Virus record (IMG/VR): IMGVR_UViG_3300032007_000023
Coordinates: 32,001 to 96,000 of that record
Source of the DNA: a virus
Taxonomy: Duplodnaviria > Caudoviricetes
Strand: one strand, 5' to 3'
Length of the DNA stretch: 64,000 bases
The translations under genes and the position numbers were made by a program. The notes beneath the pieces are model-generated. The model searched no databases. It saw only the letters and a program-made list of their open reading frames with translations, and had not been told where the DNA came from. Positions 31,995-63,763 of the stretch are shown here, piece after piece; the first letter of the stretch is position 1, and each line of letters begins with the position of its first letter.

Positions 31995-32855
31995 ATGATG
32001 ACAATAAGAACAAGAGAATCAGATAAGAAAGAACTCGTAAAGGCTGTAAAGTATGCTGAAAAGCTTGGCTTTATTACAGCTGATCACCCGCGCCATCAGC
32101 CCAGTGTAAAAATTGTCACTGGTTCTGATATAAAAGTAATCACGCCTATTCATTTCGAAATAGGTGCTGATCGCCTGGTTGATATGTATCATCAGGTTAA
32201 AACACTTGGCCTTACAGGCAGAATCTGTCTTAAGGCTTTAGTTGATGCATGGAGTGCATTAACGAAATCACAGGCAGACGATCTGAGAAATTGCTGCTGG
32301 GTTTCCAGTTACTCAGCAACAGATCTGTTGACCTTCTTCTATGGCTGGTGTATCAATCAGATAGAAAAGCAACAGATTCAGATATCGTCACAGATATCAA
32401 AGTCCACAGCAAGGAATCTTTGGTATTCCTTAGGCGGTTATAAAGGACTTAAAACATTCTTTGCCGATGGACTGGAAATAACTTTAGTAGAATTCAGGCG
32501 CATAAGACGTCTTGAAGAAAAGTTAGAAGTTGCAAAGGATATCATCATTGATAATCCTGAGCTCAAAGGTGTTGAAACATACACCGAATTTAACCCATGT
32601 CTCACTTGCAAAAACTGCAAGGTGGACAAATACGGATGCAGAATCTGTAAGAATTATCTTATAGATATTCCGGAGACCATGACAGTTAAAGAGGTAAATA
32701 AGATTTATCCTTCCGCAGCTGTTATAAATTGCGGTAAATTAAAATCACAGTTTGTATTCCACAATCTTGGCGACTGCCAATTCCGCCAAGAGCGTATTGG
32801 CTGCAAGTCCAAGAAGTGTGAAACATCAATAATCAAATATTGTATAAATAATTAA
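31995..32855 (+). CDS. Hypothetical early protein with a Cys-rich C-terminus
   Basis: AAGGAGG RBS; PCLTCKNC...GCRIC and several further Cys residues. Confidence 0.75.
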   Translation: MMTIRTRESDKKELVKAVKYAEKLGFITADHPRHQPSVKIVTGSDIKVITPIHFEIGADRLVDMYHQVKTLGLTGRICLKALVDAWSALTKSQADDLRNCCWVSSYSATDLLTFFYGWCINQIEKQQIQISSQISKSTARNLWYSLGGYKGLKTFFADGLEITLVEFRRIRRLEEKLEVAKDIIIDNPELKGVETYTEFNPCLTCKNCKVDKYGCRICKNYLIDIPETMTVKEVNKIYPSAAVINCGKLKSQFVFHNLGDCQFRQERIGCKSKKCETSIIKYCINN

Positions 32856-33754: not shown

Positions 33755-36700
33755 ATGAGTGATATCTACGTTTACAAAGGAAAACTTTGGAAACCCGCAT
33801 TCACATTTAACTACACTGGATCACCACAAAAGATCACATTGGAACCAGGAGAATATCTTTTTGTGTGTAATGGTGCCAATGGCGGACTGTGTGCTGATTC
33901 TCCTTATGTAAATGAAGCACCCCATGGTGGAACATCATATGGTATTCTTGATCTTAAGAAGACATCAGATTTCTATGCCGTTGTCGGCGGAAATGGTGGT
34001 GACGGTTCAAAACTATCAGTTGGTACCGGTGGATATAATGGAGGTGCAAACGGTGGTGAAGGATATACTGGGTATTCTCATGGTGCTGGTGGTGGTGGCG
34101 CTACTGATATAAGACTCATTAATCCAAATGAAGCAGAGCCTGCTTCTGTTGTGTTAAAAAGATATGGGGTTCCTGATGAATATCAACCAGTTGAATATAT
34201 CGAATCATCGTACACGGGTCATCAATGGATAGATACACAATATATCCATGCAGCAAATACAAAAATCAAATTTGATATATTTACTACATTAGCCGGAGAT
34301 CATTATGATTTTGAGACACCTTTTGGTGCTCGAAATAATAGTGTGAGTTATAATGCATATTATATGTTTACGACGAACGTTGGTCAAAAACAAGTTGTTT
34401 ATGGAAGAACTGGTCAAGAAGCAATTAACAACGAATTTCCTTATGATGAGAAAATTCATGTAGAAGTATATCTCGCTGACATGAATATATATGACGAAAC
34501 CGGGACAACATTACGTACCACTATACACAATACTGGCACAATAAACAATGGTGTATGTAGTATGACATTATTCAATCTGAATATTGCTAATAGTAAAAAA
34601 ACATCTCTTTATGGTAACCAAACAGGATTCGTTGGTAAAATGTATAATTTCGGTATATATGAAGATGACGAACTCAAACATTATTTTGTTCCTGTGAGAA
34701 GGAAATCAGAAACATACGAATTCGATCTTGATATAACAGATATCGAACAAGGTACTGTCAGTAGTTCTGGTGATGACAGTTCATCAACCCGAATCAGAAC
34801 AAAGAGTTTTTACAGGGCTGATTGTTTTAAGGGTACACTCACATATGAAGCGTATGATATAAATGATAATCCACTTCAGTTATGTATTTCTGAATATAAC
34901 ATAGCAGACAAATCATCATCATATTTGATTGAGGATGGAGATTGGATTTCTGCGGGGTCATCTTATACATTCACAAGTCAATATACATCATACATCAGAT
35001 TTATATTTAAATACCCATCAGGTTCGTCTTTGAATCCATCCAAAATCAAATCATGTCATATAACAATATCAGATTGCCATTATGGAATGTTTGATGTAAT
35101 AGATCAATCATTCCATGCTAATAAATCTATGACCGAAAATTTCACATGTGGTGAAGATATAGAATTTGAAGATATCGTTGAGACAATAGAAACAGACACA
35201 TCCACATTATCCAGAATAATCGTTGCTGGTGGTGCTGGAGGTACTGCGGCACAAAAAGGACAGGATGTCGGTATTCCATCATATTTTGGTATAGGCGGTG
35301 GAGCCGTAGGCGGTGCTGTTGCATCCAATGCACAAGATACCAACAATGCAAAATATGCAGACCAAATATCTGGATATAAATTCGGTTCTGGTATGGTACC
35401 TGTCCCCAAAACAGAAATCCGAAACTGGGGTGCTGAAGGCGCCGGTGGTGGAGGAGGAGGCTGGTACGGTGGATATGCATCAGCCGCATCTGTCATGGAA
35501 AATTCTTGTTGTAATGGCGGTGGTGGTTCTGGATATGTTTTAACAGAAGAATCATATAAGCCTGAATGGTATGAAGAATATATCAGTAATGAATATTATT
35601 TTACATATCCATGTATGACAGGAGGTACTTCTGACAACCCATCAGTTATAATATGCAAACGAAGAAGCAGTTACAATACCGGAGATAAACTCATTTTCCC
35701 GTGTATCGGTGATTATGAACAATGCACCCTTGACATCGGTAATTATCTGATAAAATGTTGGGGTGGTGATGGTGGTCCTCGATATGCTATATCATCAACA
35801 CCTCGTGGTGGATATGCTGAAGGAAGATTAAGTTTAAAAGAACCGACACAAATATTTGTGAATGTCGGTGGTTCTGGAATAAGATCCACTTTCGATTACC
35901 AAAGTTCTTTAATGTGTACACCATCTCTTATTTTTAATGGCGGTGGTCCTGCACCGGAGTTAAACGACATAAGATCGTCCTTTGGTGGAGGTGGTACTGA
36001 TGTAAGATTATTACAAAATACCTTTTATCATCGTTTAATTGTTGCCGGTGGAGCTGGAGGACATGGTGCTGGAGAAACCGCCAATAATAGTTTCGGTGGA
36101 GCAGGTGGTGGTCTCTCGGGTGGTAATGGAGCAGGATCATACGGTAGTGTTCCAGGACCAGGAACACAAACATCATCACCACAAGGATCTGACGTTGGTG
36201 GCGGTTTCGGTTATGGAGGAACTGGATCAACACGAGGCGGTGCTGGTTTTGGTGGATCAGGTGGCGGAGGCTGGTATGGTGGTTCTGGCTGTTATCCTGA
36301 CAAATATACTGATGATGACCGTGGTGGTGCAGGTGGTTCTGGATATGTTTTAACAGAAGATTCATATAAACCCGACGGATATATGTTAGGTGAAAAGTAT
36401 TACCTGACAGACACGTTACTTGTTACGGGAGACACATCACATCGTTATGGACAATCCAAGGTAGAAATCATCGTTGAAGAAGTGCATAACCAAAAGATGT
36501 TGTGTTATGATGAGGAAGGTACTAAGACTTTTAATACAGAAACACAATCTTGGGAATTCATTTCAAATACACCACCAACTAGTGATGATTTAAATACATA
36601 CGGTGTTTATCTTGTTAATTCCGATGAAGGATTATTGGATAATTATTCAATATATATTTATGATACCGGAGGTAGTGGTATCAACGATTGTTCCTTTAAT

Positions 36701-38257
36701 GTAATACCTACAAAACAGACTATACTTGTTGATGAAAAAACAAATAATTTTGTTACGGATTTAATATTAGACGGTGATGTTGATGAAGAAACTGTTGATA
36801 TATCATTGACAAGTACACGTAAATATATCGATAATGAATCATATGTTGAATTGATAATGAATGTGGATATCAAGGATATTCCAAAGATAGACACAAAAAT
36901 CTATGCTGTATACGCATTCACCAAAGGTATTATGAATCACGATCCTACACCACATCCTAAGCCAAAGACTCTGGAACATATAGATCTATTGTCTGTTGGT
37001 ATTGGTAATAGAATGCCATATAGGTATAAATCATATCTGGGTGGATTTATATCTGATGGACAAGAAGCAATAACATCAATAAATTCATCTATTTCATATG
37101 AACACAACAGAAATGTTTATTCTGCAATATTATGTAATGATAAGATAGTTAGGTTTACAAAATTAAATCTTCTAACGAACACATCAACTATCATACGTGA
37201 TGTTTCCAAGGCTGTCTTAGGAAATGCATATTACGGTGGATTTGTTGTTGATGATAATTTCATGTATTTAACATCTTCTAATGAAGATAATAGAATATGG
37301 AAAATACCGTTAGATCCAACTGACCAGAATATCGAAACTATTGCAACACCCGACTCTAATAAAGCTATAGTATGTTATGGAAAAATAGATTGGTATGACG
37401 ATCACACAATTGTTATGTGTCACCGTCGTAGAGGTATATGGTTATATGATACAATTAAAAATAAATGGACCGAAAAACCTCAGGGAGAAAATACAAATGA
37501 TATTCGTGGCGATTTCGCAATTGGTGATAAATATCTAATATCAACATATTATGATTCATCGAAGTCTGTATGGATTGTTGATGTCGAAAATAATCAATGG
37601 TATGATATGACAAAAACATATTATACATTTCCAAACAATGAAATCAAGATTGTTTGTTATGGTGATGGCAAATTTTATTTTGCACAAAAGTCATACATAT
37701 ATGTCATGGATGAAGAAAATATCAAGAATCATTTGGAATCTGGTGTTGAAGTAAATGTAAAACGAATAGCGGCATCATACGGATCATCAATACCCAGGAC
37801 AATAAGCTATGTCAATGGATTATTGTATATAACATTGAGGAGTTCCAATCTGTTATATATCTATGATATTAAAACAGATACCTTTAGATCCACACTACTG
37901 GAGTTCACACAATTATGGGACTATCCATATCGTGCGGGTTATCATATACCAACAACGGTTGATGGCGGCTATTTCTTTATTGCCGATTTACGATTATTCG
38001 TAATAAATCTCGGTGACTATGCAAAATATAACATGGGATACAAATTTAATCAAATTCAATATATAATGAATATTGATAATATCGATAAATTTACATACGA
38101 TGATAGATTTGTTTCATTCCATGATTCATATATTTTGATTCATGCTGGAGATATTATCAAACCGGCAATTAGAATTGACGAAAATGTATACCGTGTTGAT
38201 ATTAGTAAAACCGAGTATAACAAACTCATTAGTTTTACTACAAACATTAGTGATTAA
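33755..38257 (+). CDS. Glycine-rich tail fibre/receptor-binding protein (two ALK/LTK-like Gly-rich domains, LamG-like insert, C-terminal beta-propeller-like region)
   Basis: FNYTG..Q..TL..G.Y....GA.GG, GYNGG, GGGG.TD.RL, RIIVAGG.GG, GGGGGWYGG and GGSGYV each occur twice; YQPVEYIES...QWIDT is LamG-like. Confidence 0.75.
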   Translation: MSDIYVYKGKLWKPAFTFNYTGSPQKITLEPGEYLFVCNGANGGLCADSPYVNEAPHGGTSYGILDLKKTSDFYAVVGGNGGDGSKLSVGTGGYNGGANGGEGYTGYSHGAGGGGATDIRLINPNEAEPASVVLKRYGVPDEYQPVEYIESSYTGHQWIDTQYIHAANTKIKFDIFTTLAGDHYDFETPFGARNNSVSYNAYYMFTTNVGQKQVVYGRTGQEAINNEFPYDEKIHVEVYLADMNIYDETGTTLRTTIHNTGTINNGVCSMTLFNLNIANSKKTSLYGNQTGFVGKMYNFGIYEDDELKHYFVPVRRKSETYEFDLDITDIEQGTVSSSGDDSSSTRIRTKSFYRADCFKGTLTYEAYDINDNPLQLCISEYNIADKSSSYLIEDGDWISAGSSYTFTSQYTSYIRFIFKYPSGSSLNPSKIKSCHITISDCHYGMFDVIDQSFHANKSMTENFTCGEDIEFEDIVETIETDTSTLSRIIVAGGAGGTAAQKGQDVGIPSYFGIGGGAVGGAVASNAQDTNNAKYADQISGYKFGSGMVPVPKTEIRNWGAEGAGGGGGGWYGGYASAASVMENSCCNGGGGSGYVLTEESYKPEWYEEYISNEYYFTYPCMTGGTSDNPSVIICKRRSSYNTGDKLIFPCIGDYEQCTLDIGNYLIKCWGGDGGPRYAISSTPRGGYAEGRLSLKEPTQIFVNVGGSGIRSTFDYQSSLMCTPSLIFNGGGPAPELNDIRSSFGGGGTDVRLLQNTFYHRLIVAGGAGGHGAGETANNSFGGAGGGLSGGNGAGSYGSVPGPGTQTSSPQGSDVGGGFGYGGTGSTRGGAGFGGSGGGGWYGGSGCYPDKYTDDDRGGAGGSGYVLTEDSYKPDGYMLGEKYYLTDTLLVTGDTSHRYGQSKVEIIVEEVHNQKMLCYDEEGTKTFNTETQSWEFISNTPPTSDDLNTYGVYLVNSDEGLLDNYSIYIYDTGGSGINDCSFNVIPTKQTILVDEKTNNFVTDLILDGDVDEETVDISLTSTRKYIDNESYVELIMNVDIKDIPKIDTKIYAVYAFTKGIMNHDPTPHPKPKTLEHIDLLSVGIGNRMPYRYKSYLGGFISDGQEAITSINSSISYEHNRNVYSAILCNDKIVRFTKLNLLTNTSTIIRDVSKAVLGNAYYGGFVVDDNFMYLTSSNEDNRIWKIPLDPTDQNIETIATPDSNKAIVCYGKIDWYDDHTIVMCHRRRGIWLYDTIKNKWTEKPQGENTNDIRGDFAIGDKYLISTYYDSSKSVWIVDVENNQWYDMTKTYYTFPNNEIKIVCYGDGKFYFAQKSYIYVMDEENIKNHLESGVEVNVKRIAASYGSSIPRTISYVNGLLYITLRSSNLLYIYDIKTDTFRSTLLEFTQLWDYPYRAGYHIPTTVDGGYFFIADLRLFVINLGDYAKYNMGYKFNQIQYIMNIDNIDKFTYDDRFVSFHDSYILIHAGDIIKPAIRIDENVYRVDISKTEYNKLISFTTNISD

Positions 38258-44756: not shown

Positions 44757-47700
44757 TTATTTTACGATATTGATTACGATGTTATCATCATCCATAACAA
44801 ACATTTCAGGAGTATATCTTTCAAGCTCAGATTTACCTCTGCTATCTTTGATCATATCTTCAAATGTTTTCCATTTACGAATGATTGCCTGTGTGTTGGC
44901 ATCCATATAGTTACCACCACGACCCTTATCGTTTGTATACCAACCTTTGAACTTCATCCATGCAACATTATCATGTGCTTCCATCTGTTGTATTACATGA
45001 GATATGTAGATATTATTATCCATACTGATCTCGTCGACAGGGGTGTGTACACTTGTTATACGATTGAAATATGATTTAACAATCAATCTCAATTCGTTAA
45101 TAGTGTTTGTTGCAAGAGCTTGGTTATAAAGTTTAACATCAAACTCGAGTTGGATATTCAAATCAGGCCAATATGCTCTATCGTCATCAGGATCAAGATT
45201 TACATTCAAATCAGATGAATATGAATGAGGTCTACCGTATGTTGCAATGAGTTTGCAATCAAGGTAATTGTTTCCTTCAAGACGTTTAAAGATAACTGGT
45301 TCGATTGCTTTGTGAACCTGAGTAAATGATGCAACAAAGTTTTCGAATCTATCAGAATTCATTAATGAATACTGAACAAATGGAACGAGTTGAATCGTGA
45401 GATGTCCGTTGATATTGACTGGTTCAAATGCATCATTTACATTTGCTTGATATGCACTGAATGTGTGATATATAAGATTCCAGTCGAGATGCTGTTTGAT
45501 ATCAACATAGTAGTTTGTATATGCACTATCCCAGTTAGAAGGTTCTTCTGTAAGTAATATATAATTACCATGAGAATCCTTGGTATAATATTTACCCTCT
45601 TCCCATTCAGGAGCTATGTCGCCTGTTATTGGTACGATTTCAGGATCATCATTGTCATAATGAATTATTGTATCCAATATGTCAGTGAGTTGACCGAACC
45701 ATTCGGGAATTCCATAGTCTTCCATGCATTTGCTGTACGAATTAAAGTAATCTTCTAATATTGCTTTATCAGAAACACATGCTGTCTGGAATGTAACAAA
45801 AGGATCATCAGGATCAACAGTACCTATGTACTGATTATATGCATAATCTGTGAGATAATACATGTTGAATGGTTGATCCTCATTATAGTCTGCAAATGCC
45901 ATCATATTCTTATACAGATCTATCTGTTCTTGTGATGGAACTGATGTATCACCAAATTCAACAACACTTCTCATTTCCTTTAATTCCTGAACCAGATCAA
46001 CGTCATCTAACATGAACTCATCTATGACTCTGAAACCAGTGAAGTCATCACCGAGTTCAATTTCTGAGTCTCTGTTGGGGTCATCTGATCTAACAAGTAT
46101 GGTTAACTTGATTTGAGGATCTGTTGCACTGATGCTTACAACATTACCATTTACAGCCTTCCATGAACCACCACCATTTTCAGATGATGCAATATCAATA
46201 CGATTATCAATATCAAGTAATTCTGTCAATGGATACATTGTTGCTTCGAACTTATATGAACCATCATCTTCAAGAGATACAGGTTGCATTTCGATACGTC
46301 CGGTTTCAGAACCATTGACGATTGAATGCATAAGAACACGAAGATTATTAAGCTTAAGAGGAAGCTGTTCTGAATAAACATAGAACATTGCTTCACCTTT
46401 ATCGAGTGCTGAGAAAGGTATTCTGTAATATGCTATAGCTCCACTCTCTGGTGCAGGCTTCATATCAGCATAAAGAATAATTGATGTAGAACCAAGTTGA
46501 TTGAGATCAAATACATATCTTCCTGGTTCAGATTGTTCTTCACTCCATTCATATGGAATGTAAACATTAGCAGCATTGGATATGGTATAAGTAACCTGTC
46601 TCTCAGATGAAGTATGTGTTTCTTCATCTTCGACTGCATAATATACGTTGATGTATACTGCAGAAGCATAACTCTTGCCAATCTTAATAAGCTGGCTTTC
46701 ACCATACTTTGTGAGTTCTGTTTTTGATGCTTCACCAACGACGAGTTTTGTTATCGTACCACGTGGAGCATTTTCAGAAAGACGCATCTCATAATAATTC
46801 TGAGTCTCGACTCTCTTGAATGTTATGAGATCTTCGGTAGTCAGTTTAGGAAACAGACCAATCTCAGTATCACCAGACACAGGAATATCTTGACGACTTG
46901 AACTGTTGTTACCCCATACTTCATCAGTACCATAAAGAATCATTCCAGGAATTCTTACAGGAGTTCTTTTCTTGTCAGGTGTAGAAGTATTTCCTTCTTC
47001 AATCCATATGTCACCAGAGAATGTCCACATATTATCATTCGTTCTATCCTTGGAAGTAACGCAGAAATACGTCTCCTTAGGATCGAATGGTAAGAAACCA
47101 TCGTCTTCATCAAGAGGAAGAAGTGGTATTGCTTCAGCATACATGTCCAAAGGTTTCTTGAAATAATTCCACAATACTGATTCAAAAGCAGGAGCAACCG
47201 CATTAACACGTAAATACTCAACAAGACTTTGACCATTATTCATTCCAGGTATATTAGGAAGAATATATGATGTGATGGTATAATGATCATCCTTATATGT
47301 TCTCATGATATTTGTAATGATTGGGTATGCATGATAGATATAAGAAATATCCTCGGTATTATTATCAACAGCAGCTGCAGAATTTGTCTTGTTTATTTTT
47401 GTTGCAGTAACATATTCGTTTACCCATGGATTGAAATATCCAATTGCAAACGGATCCTTCTGAATTCTTATACCAAAAGGATTTGCAAAAACAAACTTAT
47501 CTGCTATACTTGCTAATGTTGATGCAGTTTCAACAGTAACACCATTTCCTTTTGTATACGGAGTAACAGTATAAAGATGCTGATGATCCTTGTAGTTTGT
47601 TGTATATACCCAGATCCAACCTGGAGGAATTATAATCTCATTGTTGGAAACTGTGTTGTTATTGTTATTATACAATACCTCATATGGAATTTCAGCATGA

Positions 47701-48977
47701 AGTGTATTTGTCCTGTAGATGTAATCATCATTATCTGTCAAGGCAATATAACCACTCCAGATTCTACCCCATGGATCATCACGTCTCTTGAAGAAGTATG
47801 GATACAATATATTCTTGAAATAGAATGTATTGAACCACTCATCAATATCATGATCAGTTGATAAAACATTGGCAGTATTATATGCCTCAATAGTTTCTCT
47901 ACGAGTTGTTTCAACAGTACCAATGTCAGCACCACCAAGACAACCAGAAATGATGAATGCAGCTTTCATTACATTAGCATTATTAGAATATCTATTAGCT
48001 GCTGTAATTACACCAGGCTGTTCTTCATTTTTGTAGCTAGGAGCATTTGCTGCTTTACCATGACATGTGTAGATGGTTATTTCAAATGAAGAGTTTGTTT
48101 CAGGTACGAAATAACGATTACCGTTTAATTGCCACATGAAACGTATTGTCTGTGGATTGTCCATTATGTAGTGAACATATGGATTATTGTCAGTAACAGT
48201 ATCATGTATTGCAAGTATGTGATCTCTTGGTAATATTGATTCATTACCTTTACTATCGATATACTTTACATCGAATCCTGCAATATGATTTTCACACATA
48301 ATCACAGTATCTTCATTAGGTATACCATTCGTTGTATTATTTACAACAGTATGAACCTGACGTTCATATTCATTTGCCTGAATCAATAAACATAACCAAA
48401 CATCAGTAACACGATATGTGATGTAAACATTCTTGTTTGTTGCACATACATTTGCATCATTTCTATTAATATACTGAATATTCCATGCGGGAATAGATGC
48501 TTCAATACTTGATGTTGATATATCCTTATACTGGATAAGAATATCATAATCAAGAGAATACACAAATCCTTCAGGAAGATTAAACTTGGTATTCTTATCA
48601 AGAATGAATTCGTATAATCCATTATCTGCATTGAATACCGCGTTATCATAGATATCCTGAATCTTAAGTTCCAATAAGAAATTTGTTGATGCAGGTGTTG
48701 CAAATGAATAACCGATGTTGAATATTGCGGCTTCGGCATATATAGAATCCGGAAGAACCGCTTTTGTTATAAATGATTCATTGAAGTAGAATGACGATGT
48801 GAAACCGAGCTGTTCTGTTATCTGTGAAATATACTCACTGACAAGAGAGAAGAAACCTGTATTCAAAACATTCAATGGAATGTCATGAAATACTCTCGGT
48901 GCAAGCTCATCAAACATAAACTTTTTTATCTGACTATCATCAGAATAATTGTTAAGTAAGATTGATTCATCAGCCAT
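44757..48977 (-). CDS. Baseplate wedge-like structural protein
   Basis: NESFITKAVLPDSIYAEA, FATPA, PETNS...ITIYTCHGKAAN, GG.D, FFKRRDD resemble T4 gp6-like jumbo-phage wedge proteins; 1406 aa. Confidence 0.6.
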   Translation of the reverse strand: MADESILLNNYSDDSQIKKFMFDELAPRVFHDIPLNVLNTGFFSLVSEYISQITEQLGFTSSFYFNESFITKAVLPDSIYAEAAIFNIGYSFATPASTNFLLELKIQDIYDNAVFNADNGLYEFILDKNTKFNLPEGFVYSLDYDILIQYKDISTSSIEASIPAWNIQYINRNDANVCATNKNVYITYRVTDVWLCLLIQANEYERQVHTVVNNTTNGIPNEDTVIMCENHIAGFDVKYIDSKGNESILPRDHILAIHDTVTDNNPYVHYIMDNPQTIRFMWQLNGNRYFVPETNSSFEITIYTCHGKAANAPSYKNEEQPGVITAANRYSNNANVMKAAFIISGCLGGADIGTVETTRRETIEAYNTANVLSTDHDIDEWFNTFYFKNILYPYFFKRRDDPWGRIWSGYIALTDNDDYIYRTNTLHAEIPYEVLYNNNNNTVSNNEIIIPPGWIWVYTTNYKDHQHLYTVTPYTKGNGVTVETASTLASIADKFVFANPFGIRIQKDPFAIGYFNPWVNEYVTATKINKTNSAAAVDNNTEDISYIYHAYPIITNIMRTYKDDHYTITSYILPNIPGMNNGQSLVEYLRVNAVAPAFESVLWNYFKKPLDMYAEAIPLLPLDEDDGFLPFDPKETYFCVTSKDRTNDNMWTFSGDIWIEEGNTSTPDKKRTPVRIPGMILYGTDEVWGNNSSSRQDIPVSGDTEIGLFPKLTTEDLITFKRVETQNYYEMRLSENAPRGTITKLVVGEASKTELTKYGESQLIKIGKSYASAVYINVYYAVEDEETHTSSERQVTYTISNAANVYIPYEWSEEQSEPGRYVFDLNQLGSTSIILYADMKPAPESGAIAYYRIPFSALDKGEAMFYVYSEQLPLKLNNLRVLMHSIVNGSETGRIEMQPVSLEDDGSYKFEATMYPLTELLDIDNRIDIASSENGGGSWKAVNGNVVSISATDPQIKLTILVRSDDPNRDSEIELGDDFTGFRVIDEFMLDDVDLVQELKEMRSVVEFGDTSVPSQEQIDLYKNMMAFADYNEDQPFNMYYLTDYAYNQYIGTVDPDDPFVTFQTACVSDKAILEDYFNSYSKCMEDYGIPEWFGQLTDILDTIIHYDNDDPEIVPITGDIAPEWEEGKYYTKDSHGNYILLTEEPSNWDSAYTNYYVDIKQHLDWNLIYHTFSAYQANVNDAFEPVNINGHLTIQLVPFVQYSLMNSDRFENFVASFTQVHKAIEPVIFKRLEGNNYLDCKLIATYGRPHSYSSDLNVNLDPDDDRAYWPDLNIQLEFDVKLYNQALATNTINELRLIVKSYFNRITSVHTPVDEISMDNNIYISHVIQQMEAHDNVAWMKFKGWYTNDKGRGGNYMDANTQAIIRKWKTFEDMIKDSRGKSELERYTPEMFVMDDDNIVINIVK

Positions 48978-49028: not shown

Positions 49029-49119
49029 AGTTCTACCGTATAAGGTTAAAACATACATTATGGTTTGGTCGGGAATCATCGACAATCCATAATAATTTTA
49101 TGAAAAGGAGATGTTAATT

Positions 49120-52100
49120 ATGGCTGAAGATAGGGTTCAACTTAAACAAGAAGAAATCGTTGGTAACGAAGTTGTTCTCAGCGATATAAACCCTAAGTCA
49201 AATACCAAGTCAATAGATGACCCCACGACAGGTGCTTCATTGGATAAGACTCTTGAAAGAATGTGGCAATCAATAAACAACAAACTTTCACGTATTGTCA
49301 ATAGTGTTAATGGTCGTACTGGTGTTGTCGTTCTTGATTCATCTGATGTCGGACTTGGTAATGTCGATAACGTTTCATTCGCCGATATCAAGCAATGGGT
49401 TATAACAAGAACTGCCCAGGAATTTGGTTTCAAGAGACTTGCATTATTCAATTCTCTTCGTGAACTTGATGATACTATAAACCATGAATGGTTACATGAT
49501 GAGGTGTATGCAAATAAACCCTTCTATTCACATCATGGTTATAAATCAAATGGTGTAATGGATAACCGTGGTTACATAGGTTACATCTATTACGATTCAT
49601 CTGTTAATAAGCTTAAGCATACTGAGATGGTTCTTGACACTATCGGTTCTGCTGATAATTCTATTATATATAATGAGCAAGGACATCAGAATGGTGAAAC
49701 TCGTGACTATAGTGAAAGCGGTCGTATAGGTGTAAACATCTGGACATATGAAGATGCTCTTGAGGTATATAATAATATATCCTCTGAAAATAAGGCTGAC
49801 TCGGGTCTTCGTATAAACAAAGACAATATCGCACCTAAACTTTATTTCTTTGATGGAGTATATGGTGATGGTGCTACTTCACGGGATCCAAATGCGTTAC
49901 TTTACTATGCTGCTAAGGATATCGAACAGGATAAACCAAATGCTGTTGATATTTATATCGATGGAACCAAGATAGAATATAATAGATCAAACAGTCTTGG
50001 ACAGAATCTGTACAATAATACGAATTACATCAAGCAATCATTCAAAGTAAATGATCTCATTCTTTGTAATTTCAATGATGAGAATTATCTCCAGCCGGTT
50101 GATGCTAGTCATGCTAATGATAGGGTGCTCAATATTGAAATGAATCCATTGCTTATGCTTAAGAGACCTTGTATTGGTCAGGTTACAAAAGCACCGACAG
50201 CACAAGATCCTTCGGTTAATTATGAGATTAGATTCTATTCAATAAGACAGAATATATATCGCGGTCTCAAATATGATACTATACATACTAATGATTCAGA
50301 CTATCCTAATGGGGCTTTAAGTGTTGATCTGCTTACAACAACCACTATCAAAAAAGGAGATGATCTGATTTATGTGACAACAGTACCAAATCAGAAATTC
50401 GTCAACTTAAGTGGTATGAATGCAATGCGTCCATATAATCCGAAATATCAGCATACAAATAATGGTGCTGGTGGTAAACGAACATTCAGAACCATATTGC
50501 CAACAGGTGTTATTACTGATATCTATCAGGATGATACAACTGGCTTACCTAATGAAGAAGGTTCAATGTTTATCTTACCAAACTATTCATTGTGTGTAAT
50601 TCCATATACAGCACATGTTGAACAAAACAATCAGCTTGTAAGTAACTGGCCTATGTCTGCTCCTCCTATACCCAATGAACCAAATTGGGATTATGGAAAT
50701 AATGATACCACCTTATTGGGTATTAACCTTGTTAAAGGTGTAAATAAATCATCTTCTGATACTCGTCCTGGTTTTGTAACAAACCTTTCTGGATTAAGGA
50801 TAGATGATGAGGTAGACCCAATAACTGGTAAATGGCTTGGTATTGGTGATAATTCCGGTATATCAATACAAAACCATTCAGGTGGTTTATCAGTAAATGT
50901 GGGTAGTTTCCTTGAAATAGGTAGCTCTGACGCATCATATGCAAAGAATAGATCGGATATTTTCTTCTATGAGGAAGGTAAGGTTAATGTTCGTATTGAT
51001 AAGATGCGAGGTTTACATGAATCATATGATAATAAACTTTCTGTAAATATATCAGAGAATACAGCGCCAAAGGATCATGATGCGAACCATCTCTCTGGTG
51101 GTTTGAAATTTACTGATGACTATGGTGACGAAGCTACACCACAATATGGTGTTCTCTCCGTGAATACCGGAGGAAATGCAAGAGGTTTATCAATAAAGAA
51201 TAATACTCCTTGTGATGTAAAATATAATATAGCAGGTAATCCTATACATGTCATCAATGAAAGTAATGTATTAGGTGTTCAGCTGTATGATTTAACAAGA
51301 GAAATATCTCAAACCACATCAGAAACAATAACACCTTCCGGTCTTGAAATAAAGTATGGAATCTTTGAAGAAGACATTGTTCCATTACTTCCGAACAGTA
51401 ATGTTTATTCTAAAAAAGTATGGAACACTGTATTTGATCTGGATTATGAACTCAATTTGGATCCAGCACAATATCCAAATCGAACACCATTCAAAGATAA
51501 TGAAGTATATATTGCAGCAGGTTCAAGGTGGATAGTTAGTACATCAGAACTTGTTTATCATCCCTACGTTGTATTCTATTCTGACAAAGATCAGTATGAT
51601 CAAGTTCTCGATTCAATAAGATCGGATCCTACCATATGGCCTGAATCAAAACAATGTCATGTACTTATTGAAGATTCATCAGATCCGGATGTATATACCA
51701 TAACCGGAAAAGCATATGGTGATATTATTAATTTACATTTACCAGATACTGATTTCAATGGAAGAATATTTGCAGATGATGCATCTTTTGTAAGACGTAT
51801 GACAGCTATCATGTCAAGTGCCTTACCATCAATCTATGTTAAAAAAGATGCAACAACCGGTGGTATTGAAGGATTCTATAGTGATCCTGAAAAAACAACT
51901 CCGTTTGTCATTCCATCTACTGCGGTTGAAGGTGATCTTTTTACCACTATGAACTATGTTGAGGAGTTTAATATTCCTGGTAATAGTGAATTATTATATG
52001 AAATACTTTATGAATGTTATAAACCTCAGGGATCTGATAATCTTGAATTGCGTGTGTATAAACCATCTGGTTTAGGAGATCAAGCACCAGATCCATGGAC

Positions 52101-52881
52101 AGAGTCTTCATTCATTGAGATGCTTCGTAGATCAGATGCAGATCAGAATGGTAGAATTACTACTGTTGATTCAACATGGATTCTCTCTTTTTATGCAGAG
52201 TTACAAAATGAATATCGTGGTATGTCATTGACAGATGCATGGATTGCATTTTTGGATGCTCACGGAAAGACTGTCAGTGATGATCCTATTATAACAATAT
52301 TCAGTTGTAAATATGAAAAGGGTGTTCGTATAAAATATGATGAATCGCGTGGTATAACGTATTCACCTATATTGATCGAAGGATCATTAATTGATGGAAC
52401 CGATAGATCTGATTATGATATTAATACACTTAGGGCTAATGCAAAACATGATGCTATCAGTATTAAAATCGCAGATCCTTCTTCAGGTGTTTTGACATTC
52501 GACAAATATATTTGTGGAGGTCTTAGGTTTGGCACAAATGGATATCTCGGTGTGCGTATAAATAATTCAAACAAATATAATGCAGCATTACCATCAAAGA
52601 ATAATGGAACACAGAGTGATGATCTCTCCATAGGAACCCGTGGTCTTCATATATATGACAAGAATATTCTCGGTATTCAGTTAACTAATGACGGCAGAAT
52701 CGATAATGGTGAGTTATATTTTGATGAAGACGGTAATCTTCGTATATCTAAAGCATTTAATCCGGGAAAAGAAAACATGACAATTTCAGGAAAATTGAAT
52801 GGAGTAACAACAAATGTTTCTTATAATGGATCTGAAGATGTTACAATAACACTTGGTCCTGGATTGTGTTTTAGTGAATGA
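49120..52881 (+). CDS. Tail-fibre-like protein with an embedded dockerin-like domain
   Basis: N-terminal VNSVNGRTGVVVL...DVGLGNVDN fibre motif; repeated GL...L.V/I fibre-shaft segments; paired Ca-binding loops DTDFNGRIFADDA and DADQNGRITTVDS..ILSFYA; C-terminal YNGSEDVTITL. Start at ATG 49120 behind AAGGAG. Confidence 0.7.
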   Translation: MAEDRVQLKQEEIVGNEVVLSDINPKSNTKSIDDPTTGASLDKTLERMWQSINNKLSRIVNSVNGRTGVVVLDSSDVGLGNVDNVSFADIKQWVITRTAQEFGFKRLALFNSLRELDDTINHEWLHDEVYANKPFYSHHGYKSNGVMDNRGYIGYIYYDSSVNKLKHTEMVLDTIGSADNSIIYNEQGHQNGETRDYSESGRIGVNIWTYEDALEVYNNISSENKADSGLRINKDNIAPKLYFFDGVYGDGATSRDPNALLYYAAKDIEQDKPNAVDIYIDGTKIEYNRSNSLGQNLYNNTNYIKQSFKVNDLILCNFNDENYLQPVDASHANDRVLNIEMNPLLMLKRPCIGQVTKAPTAQDPSVNYEIRFYSIRQNIYRGLKYDTIHTNDSDYPNGALSVDLLTTTTIKKGDDLIYVTTVPNQKFVNLSGMNAMRPYNPKYQHTNNGAGGKRTFRTILPTGVITDIYQDDTTGLPNEEGSMFILPNYSLCVIPYTAHVEQNNQLVSNWPMSAPPIPNEPNWDYGNNDTTLLGINLVKGVNKSSSDTRPGFVTNLSGLRIDDEVDPITGKWLGIGDNSGISIQNHSGGLSVNVGSFLEIGSSDASYAKNRSDIFFYEEGKVNVRIDKMRGLHESYDNKLSVNISENTAPKDHDANHLSGGLKFTDDYGDEATPQYGVLSVNTGGNARGLSIKNNTPCDVKYNIAGNPIHVINESNVLGVQLYDLTREISQTTSETITPSGLEIKYGIFEEDIVPLLPNSNVYSKKVWNTVFDLDYELNLDPAQYPNRTPFKDNEVYIAAGSRWIVSTSELVYHPYVVFYSDKDQYDQVLDSIRSDPTIWPESKQCHVLIEDSSDPDVYTITGKAYGDIINLHLPDTDFNGRIFADDASFVRRMTAIMSSALPSIYVKKDATTGGIEGFYSDPEKTTPFVIPSTAVEGDLFTTMNYVEEFNIPGNSELLYEILYECYKPQGSDNLELRVYKPSGLGDQAPDPWTESSFIEMLRRSDADQNGRITTVDSTWILSFYAELQNEYRGMSLTDAWIAFLDAHGKTVSDDPIITIFSCKYEKGVRIKYDESRGITYSPILIEGSLIDGTDRSDYDINTLRANAKHDAISIKIADPSSGVLTFDKYICGGLRFGTNGYLGVRINNSNKYNAALPSKNNGTQSDDLSIGTRGLHIYDKNILGIQLTNDGRIDNGELYFDEDGNLRISKAFNPGKENMTISGKLNGVTTNVSYNGSEDVTITLGPGLCFSE

Positions 52882-52899: not shown

Positions 52900-53412
52900 A
52901 TGAGTAATATTAAAATCACTCTTGCTCTTGATAATTCACTTGAATATGGTAATAAGGGTACAGGTCCATTACGAATAAAAGCATCAAAACTTGACGAAGG
53001 TACTTCGCGTGCTAATACATTAGAATTTAAATCTGATGGATTATATGCTCAAGCAAAGCCAGGAGACCCCGGTTCTACAGGAACCGGGTATCCTGACAGA
53101 TATGAATCATATAATGGAATAAAGTCCGGTGTCACAACACCGCATTCAGATGATTCATACCCGCGGAGAATCGTTGCAGATTGTTTTATTCATCGAGTCT
53201 TTACTGGAGTATGGAGAAATAATACTGTTGAAGATCTTGACGTACGAGATTTCGATAGAATATATCCTGGGGATCTCGTGCGATACAAAAATACAGTAGA
53301 CAATAAATGGGTGTATCATGTAATCACTGCAGTTGATAATACCGATCAACATATTCTTGAATTATCTCGAGTAATAGCATTTATTCCTTTTACAGAAACA
53401 GAGGTTAATTGA
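52900..53412 (+). CDS. Small fibre-like structural protein (paralog 1 of 3)
   Basis: MSNIKITL...NTLEFKSDGLYA..KPGDPG. Confidence 0.55.
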   Translation: MSNIKITLALDNSLEYGNKGTGPLRIKASKLDEGTSRANTLEFKSDGLYAQAKPGDPGSTGTGYPDRYESYNGIKSGVTTPHSDDSYPRRIVADCFIHRVFTGVWRNNTVEDLDVRDFDRIYPGDLVRYKNTVDNKWVYHVITAVDNTDQHILELSRVIAFIPFTETEVN

Positions 53413-53429
53413 TTTAGGTGGTGTGATGA

Positions 53430-53837
53430 ATGAGTAAAAATATAAAATTAACAATAGACGCATTACCAACATCTTCAACGGGACTCGGGTTTGATGATAA
53501 TAAATTAGTAGTTAAAATATCAAAGACTGCTAATAACGGACTGAGTATTGTTAATGGAAAGCTTGTTGCTACAAAAGCACCTGATGGTACACCAGGTGGT
53601 GGAACAATGAATCTTCCTGGTAATGCAATTGGTCCGACAACAGCATCAAGCACTACAGCTCTTGGTACAGTGGGTTTAAATAAAACGGTATCAAGAAAAC
53701 AAAAGGCAGGTAGTAATCAAAGTCAATTTGTAAAAGATTCTGATGGTCCTGTAATGACAAAAGTGTCAAACGGTTCATTGGTCTCTAATAAATCCATTGC
53801 ATCATACATGATTCGTTATAATCAAGAAAACCCATAA
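53430..53837 (+). CDS. Small fibre-like structural protein (paralog 2 of 3)
   Basis: MSKNIKLTI...GLGFDDNKLVVK...NGLSIVNGKL...PDGTPG. Confidence 0.55.
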   Translation: MSKNIKLTIDALPTSSTGLGFDDNKLVVKISKTANNGLSIVNGKLVATKAPDGTPGGGTMNLPGNAIGPTTASSTTALGTVGLNKTVSRKQKAGSNQSQFVKDSDGPVMTKVSNGSLVSNKSIASYMIRYNQENP

Positions 53838-53864
53838 ATATAAATGCGAGGTGATATATGAATC

Positions 53865-54596
53865 ATGAGTAAAAATATTAAAATCAATTTGGATCTTGGC
53901 GACGGTTTAAAAACCGAAAATGATAAATTATGTGTTGATTTTGAACCCAACTCATATATCCGATTAGATACTGATTCTGGTATCCCAGGACATAACGGTT
54001 TACACGTATCTAATTTAAATGGTGAAGATGGAGCTGGTGGTAGATCAACCTGTGACAATTGGACACTCGTTCCTGGTAATGGTGTAAAAATACCAAAGGT
54101 TTGGAGTGACCAAATAACAAATTTCTTGGACGTAAGTAGAGATGTCATAACCTGTATATTTAGTATGGGTTTATATAGAATATCCAATAGGAGAACATCT
54201 TCTCCACAATACACTTCTAATGTCAAAGATGTTAGAGCTATGTGTAATGAAATTGATGCTCCAAGTAGATATTGTTCGGGTACATATTATAGACCATGGA
54301 TTGGTGATATAATTCAGCTCGTTGAATATCCAAGTCTGAGGTATGATACAGGAAAAGGTGACTATTCCGGACAGAATTTCTGGTGTGAATCATTACGTCG
54401 TGAAGGTCTGGATAAAGATAATAACCGTCAGAAAACCAGAGTAATGTTCGTCATAACAAGTATAGAATATGGTGGTTCTGATGGAGCATGGATAAACAGT
54501 TTATCTTTACAATGTATATATTCTAAAGACGTTGGCACATATGTTGTAGGAAATACATACACAGGAAGTTATGATTTTTCTGCACCTTACGTTTAA
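53865..54596 (+). CDS. Small fibre-like structural protein (paralog 3 of 3)
   Basis: MSKNIKINL...GLKTENDKLCVD...NGLHV...NGEDG. Confidence 0.55.
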   Translation: MSKNIKINLDLGDGLKTENDKLCVDFEPNSYIRLDTDSGIPGHNGLHVSNLNGEDGAGGRSTCDNWTLVPGNGVKIPKVWSDQITNFLDVSRDVITCIFSMGLYRISNRRTSSPQYTSNVKDVRAMCNEIDAPSRYCSGTYYRPWIGDIIQLVEYPSLRYDTGKGDYSGQNFWCESLRREGLDKDNNRQKTRVMFVITSIEYGGSDGAWINSLSLQCIYSKDVGTYVVGNTYTGSYDFSAPYV

Positions 54597-62377: not shown

Positions 62378-62470
62378 ATGGGCCTCCTCTCGTGGGTTTG
62401 TCAGGTTATTCCTTCCTGTATTTTTATTTCAGAAGTCAAGAGGTGAAAGGGTCACCTTTCTTTTCTTCTT

Positions 62471-62488
62471 CACAGTAATAATATATAT
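62471..62488 (-). promoter_or_regulatory. Early-type phage promoter
   Basis: Minus strand ATATATATTATTACTGTG. Confidence 0.65.
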
Positions 62489-62565
62489 ACGAAAAACATA
62501 AATAATAGGAATTTTAGGTGGTGTTTCTGGGTAGCATAGAAAAGTTGAGGATTAAGAATACTTAT

Positions 62566-63280: not shown

Positions 63281-63337
63281 ATTATGGTCTAGATAATTGG
63301 CCATAATAATAAATTTATTTATCAGGAGGAATTATCA

Positions 63338-63763
63338 ATGGCAACTAACAAACCCTTTTCATTCGCTGCTCTTGCTAATTACGGCAACAGCACAGCAGCT
63401 CCCGCTACTAACTTCCAGAAGGCTTTCGTACAGGATGCAAAGAAGTTCGTAGCAAAGTGTGGTTATCCTGGAAAGGATGAGATCGGCATCATGGATGAGA
63501 AGACACCTGATGTAACAAACACAGTGTCTGCAATTCCTGAGTTCGTGTCAGGCTTTATGCATGATGAACAGAGAGCTTTCGATCTTCCTGCACCCGATAA
63601 GAACACTGCTCCTGCAACAATCAAGGTTGAACATGTTGAGGAGAAGAAGTCCGAGGGTATCCAGGCAATGGGTCCTAACAAGGGACAGAAGTGGACTTCT
63701 GTTGTGGCAGCTCATGATGAACCTAAGATCAAGGTTAAGCGTGACGCTTTCAAGAAGAAGTAA
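63338..63763 (+). CDS. Abundant basic protein, possibly a divergent HU/IHF-like DNA-binding protein
   Basis: High-expression codon bias, own promoter and terminator; helix followed by FDLP...ATIKVEHV(arm)GQKWTSVVAAH..PKIK...FKKK recalls the HU beta-arm layout. Confidence 0.4.
   Translation: MATNKPFSFAALANYGNSTAAPATNFQKAFVQDAKKFVAKCGYPGKDEIGIMDEKTPDVTNTVSAIPEFVSGFMHDEQRAFDLPAPDKNTAPATIKVEHVEEKKSEGIQAMGPNKGQKWTSVVAAHDEPKIKVKRDAFKKK

Follow-up and report, generated by a model that had tools for sequence, protein, structure and literature searches.

A predicted group-4-type dockerin in a jumbo phage tail-fibre-like protein and its relatives on Ruminococcus prophage tails

The fibre gene and its dockerin module

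The window examined here, the whole stretch of 64,000 nucleotides from positions 32,001 to 96,000 of the IMG/VR record IMGVR_UViG_3300032007_000023, carries on its plus strand a gene for a tail-fibre-like protein, in the C-terminal half of which a dockerin is predicted. The open reading frame (ORF) ends at 52881, and translation from the ATG at 49120 gives a protein of 1253 amino acids. The first in-frame ATG lies slightly earlier, at 49111; the start at 49120 is preferred because it fits the N-termini of the homologues (MAxDxVQLK), and residues are numbered from it throughout. The gene and the parts of its module are as follows.

49120..52881, plus strand: tail-fibre-like gene, with a conserved N-terminal part of ~650 amino acids and a variable C-terminal half
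49288..49425, plus strand: NSVNGRTGVVVLDSSDVGLGNVDN motif near the N-terminus, common to phage tail-fibre and minor tail proteins
51622..52344, plus strand: whole folded module (residues 835-1075) as modelled by AlphaFold2, comprising flanking beta strands, the dockerin and a beta insert
51730..52275, plus strand: predicted dockerin core (residues 871-1052, model residues 37-218), which aligns with solved dockerins
51745..51819, plus strand: repeat 1, consisting of the calcium (Ca) loop DTDFNGRIFADD and a helix, as indicated by the motif, the homologue alignment and the model
51823..52056, plus strand: beta-rich subdomain between the dockerin repeats (residues 902-979, strands at model residues 68-145)
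52102..52203, plus strand: linker helix, then repeat 2 with the Ca loop DADQNGRITTVD and the helix STWILSFYAE, aligned with the Pfam Dockerin_1 match of homologue P0004
52228..52260, plus strand: extra C-terminal helix LTDAWIAFLDA, common to prophage tail dockerins and the XDoc tails of CttA/ScaB

The protein has 142 homologues in metagenomes, 120 of which were covered by the counts of architectures given here. Forty-seven of the 120 match only the N-terminal ~650 amino acids, 42 match in the N-terminus and the shaft of the C-terminal half, and 30 have every part in common with the fibre protein. A set of 30 full-length homologues, used for the alignment below, is 35-96% identical to the fibre protein overall. 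The residues of the NSVNGRTGVVVLDSSDVGLGNVDN motif are invariant in this alignment, and it is to the region of this motif (residues 57-102) that matches to tail-fibre and minor-tail families of PHROG are confined (phrog_8780, 13892, 23595, and 35419; E-values 1.8e-5 to 4e-4). A tblastn search of the fibre protein against 50,697 deposited phage genomes gave no match.

Shaft-like motifs of the form G[LIV]x[IVLFY] are found at residues 558-741 and again at 1068-1248, with none in between. Hints of a beta-spiral come from repeated G-L-x-V motifs and from weak matches to Av_adeno_fibre in three homologues (E-value 0.05). The gene keeps its synteny with large structural-type genes in related loci. 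The protein therefore has recognisable features of a fibre, a conserved N-terminal anchor and C-terminal parts that are exchangeable, as is found with tail fibres.

The two calcium-loop repeats

The first-pass annotation of this DNA had placed two Ca-binding-loop repeats 130 codons apart in the fibre protein, and both the coordinates and the spacing were confirmed. The first, DTDFNGRIFADDASFV, begins at nucleotide 51745 (residue 876) and the second, DADQNGRITTVDSTWILSFYAE, at nucleotide 52135 (residue 1006), with AWIAFL following from nucleotide 52237. The claim that both fit a dockerin pattern was likewise upheld, with D.[DN].[DN]G.[IVLM]...D occurring exactly twice in the protein. When the protein was shuffled 20,000 times, one match was obtained in 98 of the shuffles and two matches in none.

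Both Ca loops are retained in all 30 of the full-length homologues. Conservation centres on the Ca-ligand positions 1, 3, 5, and 12 and on Gly6, the Asp at position 1 of both repeats and that at position 12 of repeat 2 being invariant, while positions 7, 10, 11, 15, 18, and 22 are highly variable. The family consensus reads 'PDxNxDGxVDxxDASxI' in repeat 1 and 'ADxDRDGxIxxxDxSxILxFY' in repeat 2. In close relatives the module is as well conserved as the protein as a whole (97% and 86% for the module, 96% and 83% for the protein).

Profile and fold evidence for a dockerin

The Pfam model Dockerin_1 (PF00404, gathering threshold 22.9 bits) does not match the fibre protein itself, even at an E-value of up to 10, which is a point against its identification as a dockerin. 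The same model matches 23 of the 30 full-length homologues at an E-value of 1 or lower, the best being 1.5e-6. In P0004 it scores 26.3 bits at the place aligned with repeat 2 of the present protein, and two further members of the fibre family, P0029 and P0043, score 25.5 and 25.0 bits. The proposed Pfam check accordingly failed for the protein and succeeded for most of its family, and the membership of this protein among dockerins is therefore argued from profile and fold rather than from Pfam.

An alignment and profile of the module built from the fibre family (A2) was used for a search of the Protein Data Bank (PDB), for AlphaFold2 and for hhalign. Against all PDB sequences, A2 has the ScaH dockerin as its first match (3.6e-10) and the CttA XDoc as its second (1.4e-7); further down are dockerins of Clostridium thermocellum, none stronger than 4.6e-5, and EF-hand proteins, none stronger than 0.05. 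With a profile of the whole protein, dockerins are the only PDB matches below an E-value of 0.05, again with ScaH and CttA on top. Neighbours in the ESM Atlas are dockerin proteins, the top one belonging to a cluster that is half viral.

The AlphaFold2 model of the module has a mean predicted local distance difference test score (pLDDT) of 82.4 and a predicted template modelling score (pTM) of 0.71. When it was submitted to Foldseek, the ScaH dockerin (8ajy_B) was the top match, with a probability of 1.0 and a template modelling (TM) score of 0.75 by target. VIA-align gives a Z-score of 7.7 for 8ajy_B (root-mean-square deviation 3.0, 84 of 84 residues) and of 6.4 for the CttA XDoc (4wkz_A), followed by four more dockerins at 4.7-5.0, so that the six best are all dockerins; unrelated chains reach at most 3.5. 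All of the dockerin structure matches cover model residues 37-218, that is to say they extend across the insert, which amounts to a prediction that the repeats, though far apart, pack as one dockerin with the beta subdomain looped out. Dockerins are built of two duplicated segments of ~22 residues, each with a 12-residue Ca-binding loop (D1, N/D3, D/N5, D12) and a helix, and the predicted structure has this compact fold, with a helix behind each of the loops that begin at residues 876 and 1006. It departs from it in the linker, the repeats being about 100 residues apart instead of about 8-20. The modelling of the module alone that had been proposed as a check thus came out in favour of a dockerin.

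As homologue matches to Pfam, the profile search of the PDB and the predicted fold agree, the dockerin reading of the first-pass annotation stands, and residues ~871-1052 are, as judged from sequence and model, a genuine dockerin with two F-hand Ca loops, each with its helix. Its further likeness to the group-4 or CttA-type dockerins of Ruminococcus flavefaciens, which had likewise been put forward, was also borne out. ScaH and CttA are its closest solved relatives by module profile, by whole-protein profile and by model, and the helix that follows repeat 2 ('Y.G....EAW..FL') can be aligned to the tail of CttA. On these grounds the dockerin is assigned to the group-4 (ScaH / CttA / ScaB) kind.

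The beta insert and the cassette nature of the dockerin

The beta-rich subdomain between the repeats consists of ~80 residues of strands, with about 100 residues separating helix 1 from the linker helix. Taken by itself it matches no known structure. The insert is conserved across the fibre family and has block-mean pLDDT values of ~82-94 for most of its length, with one low-confidence loop.

That the dockerin is an inserted domain had been suggested from its position between shaft repeats, and three observations agree with this. Homologue P0012 is colinear with the fibre protein and keeps the flanking strands but is without the dockerin. Contiguous dockerins, with loops 39 residues apart, are found in P0029, P0031, P0037, P0043, and P0045, all of which have other C-terminal architectures. 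Lastly, in an alignment of the module with the contiguous dockerin of a prophage of R. flavefaciens FD-1 described below, the insert accounts for the sole gap. A hidden Markov model (HMM) of repeat 2 matches 56 of the 120 homologues, in which the dockerin is either split or contiguous. The dockerin is thus a cassette placed within the shaft of a fibre that is itself modular, and its contiguous occurrence in other architectures of the family points to repeated uptake of dockerins, or to remodelling. As to whether the module interrupts the run of shaft repeats, it is indeed flanked by them, but the interruption (residues 742-1067) is wider than the dockerin.

A sister dockerin on Ruminococcus prophage tails

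A profile search was made over 1.84 billion proteins and its 150 best matches were ranked by best single domain. Among these, the highest-ranking proteins from outside the fibre family have ~240 amino acids, with a shared N-terminal domain (that of P0269) and a C-terminal dockerin, which fits the repeat-2 profile over its full length, extra helix included. In siphovirus-type prophages, the gene for these proteins is flanked by the tape-measure (TMP) and Prophage_tail genes. Full-length homologues are present in 22 of the 161 genomes from the genus to which FD-1 belongs, as against none of 300 genomes from elsewhere in the order (Fisher 3e-11). The copy in R. flavefaciens FD-1, P0272, is as follows.

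L088:8354-9058 (equivalent to G011:C47:33353-34057): gene for P0272 in the FD-1 prophage, in the order TMP - P0272 - Prophage_tail

P0272 has 234 amino acids and ends in a canonical dockerin (Dockerin_1, 32.5 bits) with Asn-Arg and Gly-Arg at its recognition positions. The order of genes in the prophage is Gp15, tape measure, P0272, Prophage_tail, more genes and an M15 peptidase that is a putative endolysin, and the block adjoins the bacterial gene lgt. The N-terminal domain of P0272 has no PHROG or Pfam match, and PHROGs are likewise null for the prophage dockerin proteins; from the position of its gene, P0272 is a putative distal tail protein (Dit).

Comparison of A2 with P0272 by hhalign gives a match of 99% (E-value 2.5e-18). 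The match extends over 88 columns, includes both repeats as well as the 'STGxYxGLSxxEAWxxF' tail, and has a single gap, which coincides with the insert. FD-1 has upwards of 70 dockerin repeats; against the phage profile, the prophage protein obtains 69 bits and the highest-scoring cellular dockerin 42 bits. The window's own module matches P0272 in BLASTP with 38% identity over 48 amino acids (E-value 8e-9). By these sequence comparisons, the nearest relatives of the fibre dockerin are dockerins on Ruminococcus prophage proteins at a tail position, including that of R. flavefaciens FD-1. No description was found in the literature of a dockerin-tipped protein at the distal-tail position of Ruminococcus prophages. 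P0272 is seemingly not among the dockerins tested in PMC5301203, the supplement of which has no primer matching its 3′ end.

The fibre dockerin and that of the FD-1 prophage are each other's counterparts on phage adsorption hardware, the latter being the closest relative of the former. They differ in that the prophage dockerin is contiguous, C-terminal and carried on a small siphovirus-type protein, with (N/G)-R at its recognition positions. The host of the FD-1 protein is known because it is encoded by a prophage.

The phage, its habitat and its host

The IMG/VR record is of 165 kb and has an estimated completeness of 61%, while relatives are of 231-263 kb and 89-100% complete, one of them with terminal repeats. 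These figures agree with the earlier description of the phage as a jumbo phage, its genome being roughly 270 kb. The fibre gene was found in 18 metagenome runs from ten studies, the runs being bovine-gut, gut or unlabelled; 16 of the 18 come from about eight studies, and the other two from the sample that is the likely source of this record.

For the host, 20 kb of the window were searched against 151 Ruminococcus genomes with only two candidates scored per genome, which gives the test little power, and no CRISPR link was found. The search gave short AT-rich matches along with one exact 24-mer and one match of 34 nucleotides; two of the matching loci were inspected and no CRISPR repeat array lies beside either. 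At 62465-62516 and 63300-63350 of the window there are AT-rich low-complexity stretches with 80-90% identity to many Ruminococcus genomes, neither being a spacer, and an Rfam search on the stretch matching many genomes returned nothing real. The Ruminococcus-like host that the first-pass annotation proposed is favoured by indirect evidence, namely the bovine-gut habitat and the position of the nearest dockerins on tail proteins of Ruminococcus prophages.

Neighbouring genes

Directly downstream of the fibre gene are three small genes which, in related phages, co-vary with the C-terminal half of the fibre.

52900..53412, plus strand: small fibre-like protein of 170 amino acids, the first of the three
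53430..53837, plus strand: small fibre-like protein of 135 amino acids, the second of the cassette
53865..54596, plus strand: protein of 243 amino acids, the third of the cassette

At the start of all three proteins are repeats of the fibre-like form 'xIxLxLD..LxVKxS..DGLYA' and a stretch rich in Gly; the proteins are probably short accessory fibres rather than cohesins, and they could be assigned to no known family or fold. None has a match in PHROGs. The 170-residue protein has weak leads in the atlas to viral collagen-like or tail-fibre clusters (score 0.80). The 243-residue protein has no sequence match in the PDB; its AlphaFold2 model (pLDDT 61.6) has an alpha/beta domain with a best Z-score of 3.6 and no cohesin among its structure matches. 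The three genes are also present in the related locus L005, whose fibre is without a dockerin.

The divergent neighbour of the fibre gene, at 44757-48977 on the minus strand, encodes 1406 amino acids and is the best conserved of its neighbours, being found with 48-79% identity in 19 of 19 related loci regardless of the type of fibre C-terminus. It matches only phrog_18960, to which PHROG assigns no function. Further upstream in the structural-type block is a gene at 33755-38257 of the window for a protein of 1500 amino acids with an ALK/LTK glycine-rich domain (PF12810, E-value 1.1e-69).

Possible role of the dockerin in adsorption

The presence of the same phage-type dockerin on Ruminococcus prophage tail proteins suggests that these phages probably dock on the cellulosome anchoring system of the host. 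For the present phage, it is about evenly poised whether it infects a cohesin-bearing Ruminococcus and plugs its fibre dockerin into cohesins on the host surface for adsorption, a reading drawn from sequence comparison and a structural model. On such a fibre the dockerins would point to the side, three of them should the fibre be a trimer, and the Ca2+-bound dockerins would plug into free surface cohesins, either those of the cell-wall-anchored ScaE type or those of scaffoldins. This would give a first attachment or tethering of high avidity, and final contact may be the task of the tip of the fibre and of the small fibre proteins, three in number, that co-vary with its C-terminal half (52900-54596). 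The variable loop positions 10/11 would then reflect the tracking of different host cohesins. Somewhat more tentative is a wider proposal, that jumbo phages and temperate siphophages of cellulosome-bearing rumen Ruminococcus share a dedicated 'phage-type' branch of group-4 dockerins and use cell-wall-anchored (ScaE-type) or scaffoldin cohesins of the host as receptor, phage pressure being one of the forces behind the unusual diversification of cohesin-dockerin specificities in the genus.

The partner that such docking calls for appears to be available in the presumed host genus, where cohesins are present in 157 of 161 genomes, and none was found in the phage records. A six-frame search for Cohesin (PF00963) in this record, in five dockerin-bearing relatives and in five near-complete relatives gave nothing above an E-value of 0.02, and no cohesin match was obtained on the FD-1 prophage contig.

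A number of observations weigh against docking on host cohesins. Group-4 dockerins, among them the CttA, ScaB, ScaF, ScaH, and ScaI dockerins, bind the cell-anchoring ScaE cohesin, with a Gly-Arg pair at loop positions 10/11 of one or both repeats serving in ScaE recognition (PMC5301203). In the fibre protein these positions are Ala-Asp and Thr-Val, and so a ScaE-type partner cannot be assumed; some members of the fibre family do show Gly-Arg, Ser-Arg, Ala-Arg, or Ile-Arg there. Position 9 of the first loop is Phe. Prediction of a complex between the module (A2), two Ca and the ScaE cohesin of FD-1 (L071, residues 30-232) gave 0.18 and 0.13, where the mark is 0.32, and this speaks neither for binding nor against it. 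The dockerin is ~200 residues short of the C-terminus rather than at the fibre tip, and the C-terminus itself (residues 1060-1253) has no match among 161 Ruminococcus genomes. What points to a place for the protein in a virion fibre is a short N-terminal tail-fibre motif and its modular architecture, and the placing of the host among cohesin-bearing Ruminococcus of the R. flavefaciens group is indirect. The negative result for phage cohesins is weakened by the completeness of the records, which is 61% for this one and 25-64% for the dockerin-bearing relatives. In addition, Peer et al. in 2009 reportedly described dockerin- and cohesin-like modules in non-cellulosomal organisms, dockerins with no known cohesin partner being said to be common there.

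Dockerin-like modules are widespread outside cellulosomes and many have no known cohesin partner. With this in mind, the strongest of the alternatives, though an unlikely one, is that the dockerin functions without any cohesin, either as a Ca2+-stabilised knob on the shaft or, together with the beta insert, as a site for a polysaccharide or another surface protein. The large conserved insert without known counterpart could be the true functional surface, and helix 1 and the recognition positions depart from the group-4 consensus in a protein which the Pfam model fails to match. Against this, the Ca ligands are fixed and variability is highest at the positions of the recognition face, a pattern that is easier to square with a face for binding protein than with a purely structural role, and dockerins recur both in several fibre architectures and in unrelated prophage tail proteins of a genus that encodes cohesins almost universally. 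It is distinctly less probable that the dockerin is an internal connector which plugs into a cohesin-like socket encoded by the phage, clipping receptor-binding parts together with no binding to the host. The co-variation of the C-terminal half of the fibre with the three small fibre-like genes directly downstream would suit such a role, as would the 61% completeness of the record, and cohesins may be too divergent for sequence models to find, as PMC13463774 suggests. However, PF00963 has no match in this record or in the five dockerin-bearing and five near-complete relatives, nor was a cohesin match obtained on the FD-1 contig whose prophage has the sister dockerin, and the dockerin-less fibre of L005 is accompanied by the three downstream genes as well. 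The model of the 243-residue protein has no cohesin match either, which at its low confidence does not amount to a negative.

There is a slender chance that the dockerin gives a general stickiness towards cellulosomes, whether cell-free, on plant particles or on non-host cells, which keeps virions within the fibre-attached biofilm and is not a host-specific receptor step. The adherence-to-mucus model, in which Ig-like domains are involved, is an analogue of this. The lateral position of the dockerin would be in keeping with it, leaving the fibre tip and the small fibre proteins free for specific recognition; it still requires cohesin binding, and the present data do not separate it from adsorption through host-surface cohesins. 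Hardly credible is the explanation of two unrelated EF-hand-like loops arising by chance or artefact with no dockerin present. The failure of Dockerin_1 on this protein even at an E-value of 10 speaks for it, and it was rejected on account of family-wide conservation, profile matches and the fold match, as far as sequence and predicted structure show.

Should the dockerin bind a host cohesin, this would be an adsorption mechanism made from the host's own high-affinity assembly system, and its receptor would be hard for the bacterium to discard because it anchors the machinery for degrading fibre. Phage predation would then be tied directly to cellulosome architecture and to the digestion of plant fibre in ruminants, and part of the diversity of cohesins and dockerins in R. 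flavefaciens would have a possible explanation. The phage-type dockerin with its 'EAWxxF' tail would also provide a sequence signature by which rumen phages that are uncultured could be linked to Ruminococcus hosts. For those engineering cohesin-dockerin parts, a dockerin that can be split by a folded insert may be of interest in itself. Recombinant cohesin libraries and microarrays exist for FD-1 (PMC5301203).

Comparison with known systems

Like the group-4 dockerins of known structure (ScaH, 8AJY; CttA/ScaB, 4IU2/4IU3 and 4WKZ), the phage module has two F-hand loops and the helix motif 'DA(S/T)xIL.(F/Y)Y'. It has in common with CttA/ScaB the extra helix after repeat 2, and the dockerins of the latter carry long insertions (PMC5301203), which also break the symmetry of the repeats. 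The insert of the phage module differs from that of CttA in being folded as beta structure, with ~80 residues of strands, where that of CttA is about 55 amino acids; the insertions known in CttA/ScaB dockerins are smaller than the present one. Unlike the group-4 dockerins, the phage module has neither an X module nor a signal peptide and is carried by a fibre rather than by a scaffoldin or enzyme. It also differs from the ScaE binders in being without the Gly-Arg pair, and cohesin binding is here only putative. Among 185,579 species genomes, only 34 stretches contain DGRDA[ST]x.LT[FY]Y as a motif, and all 34 are in R. flavefaciens FD-1 or in metagenome-assembled genomes (MAGs) of rumen Ruminococcus/Oscillospiraceae.

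A search of the literature on dockerins in connection with phage tails, prophages, viromes and jumbo phages found none described. The nearest case is that of dockerin domains beside a viral NosD-like protein in viruses of an ANME enrichment, for which a role in adhesion has been proposed (PMC13452462). That case and the dockerins of non-cellulosomal organisms resemble the present one in lying outside the classical cellulosomal enzymes, but theirs are not in a tail fibre and have no specific host cohesin family linked to them.

The grafting of host-surface binders onto virions is well known from the 'evolved' Dit proteins and carbohydrate-binding modules of lactococcal and Lactobacillus siphophages and from the Ig-like domains of capsids and tails. 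The fibre dockerin would follow the same logic, in which an accessory module on tail hardware adds avidity. Those modules, however, bind glycans, whereas a dockerin belongs to the host's own system of protein-protein coupling.

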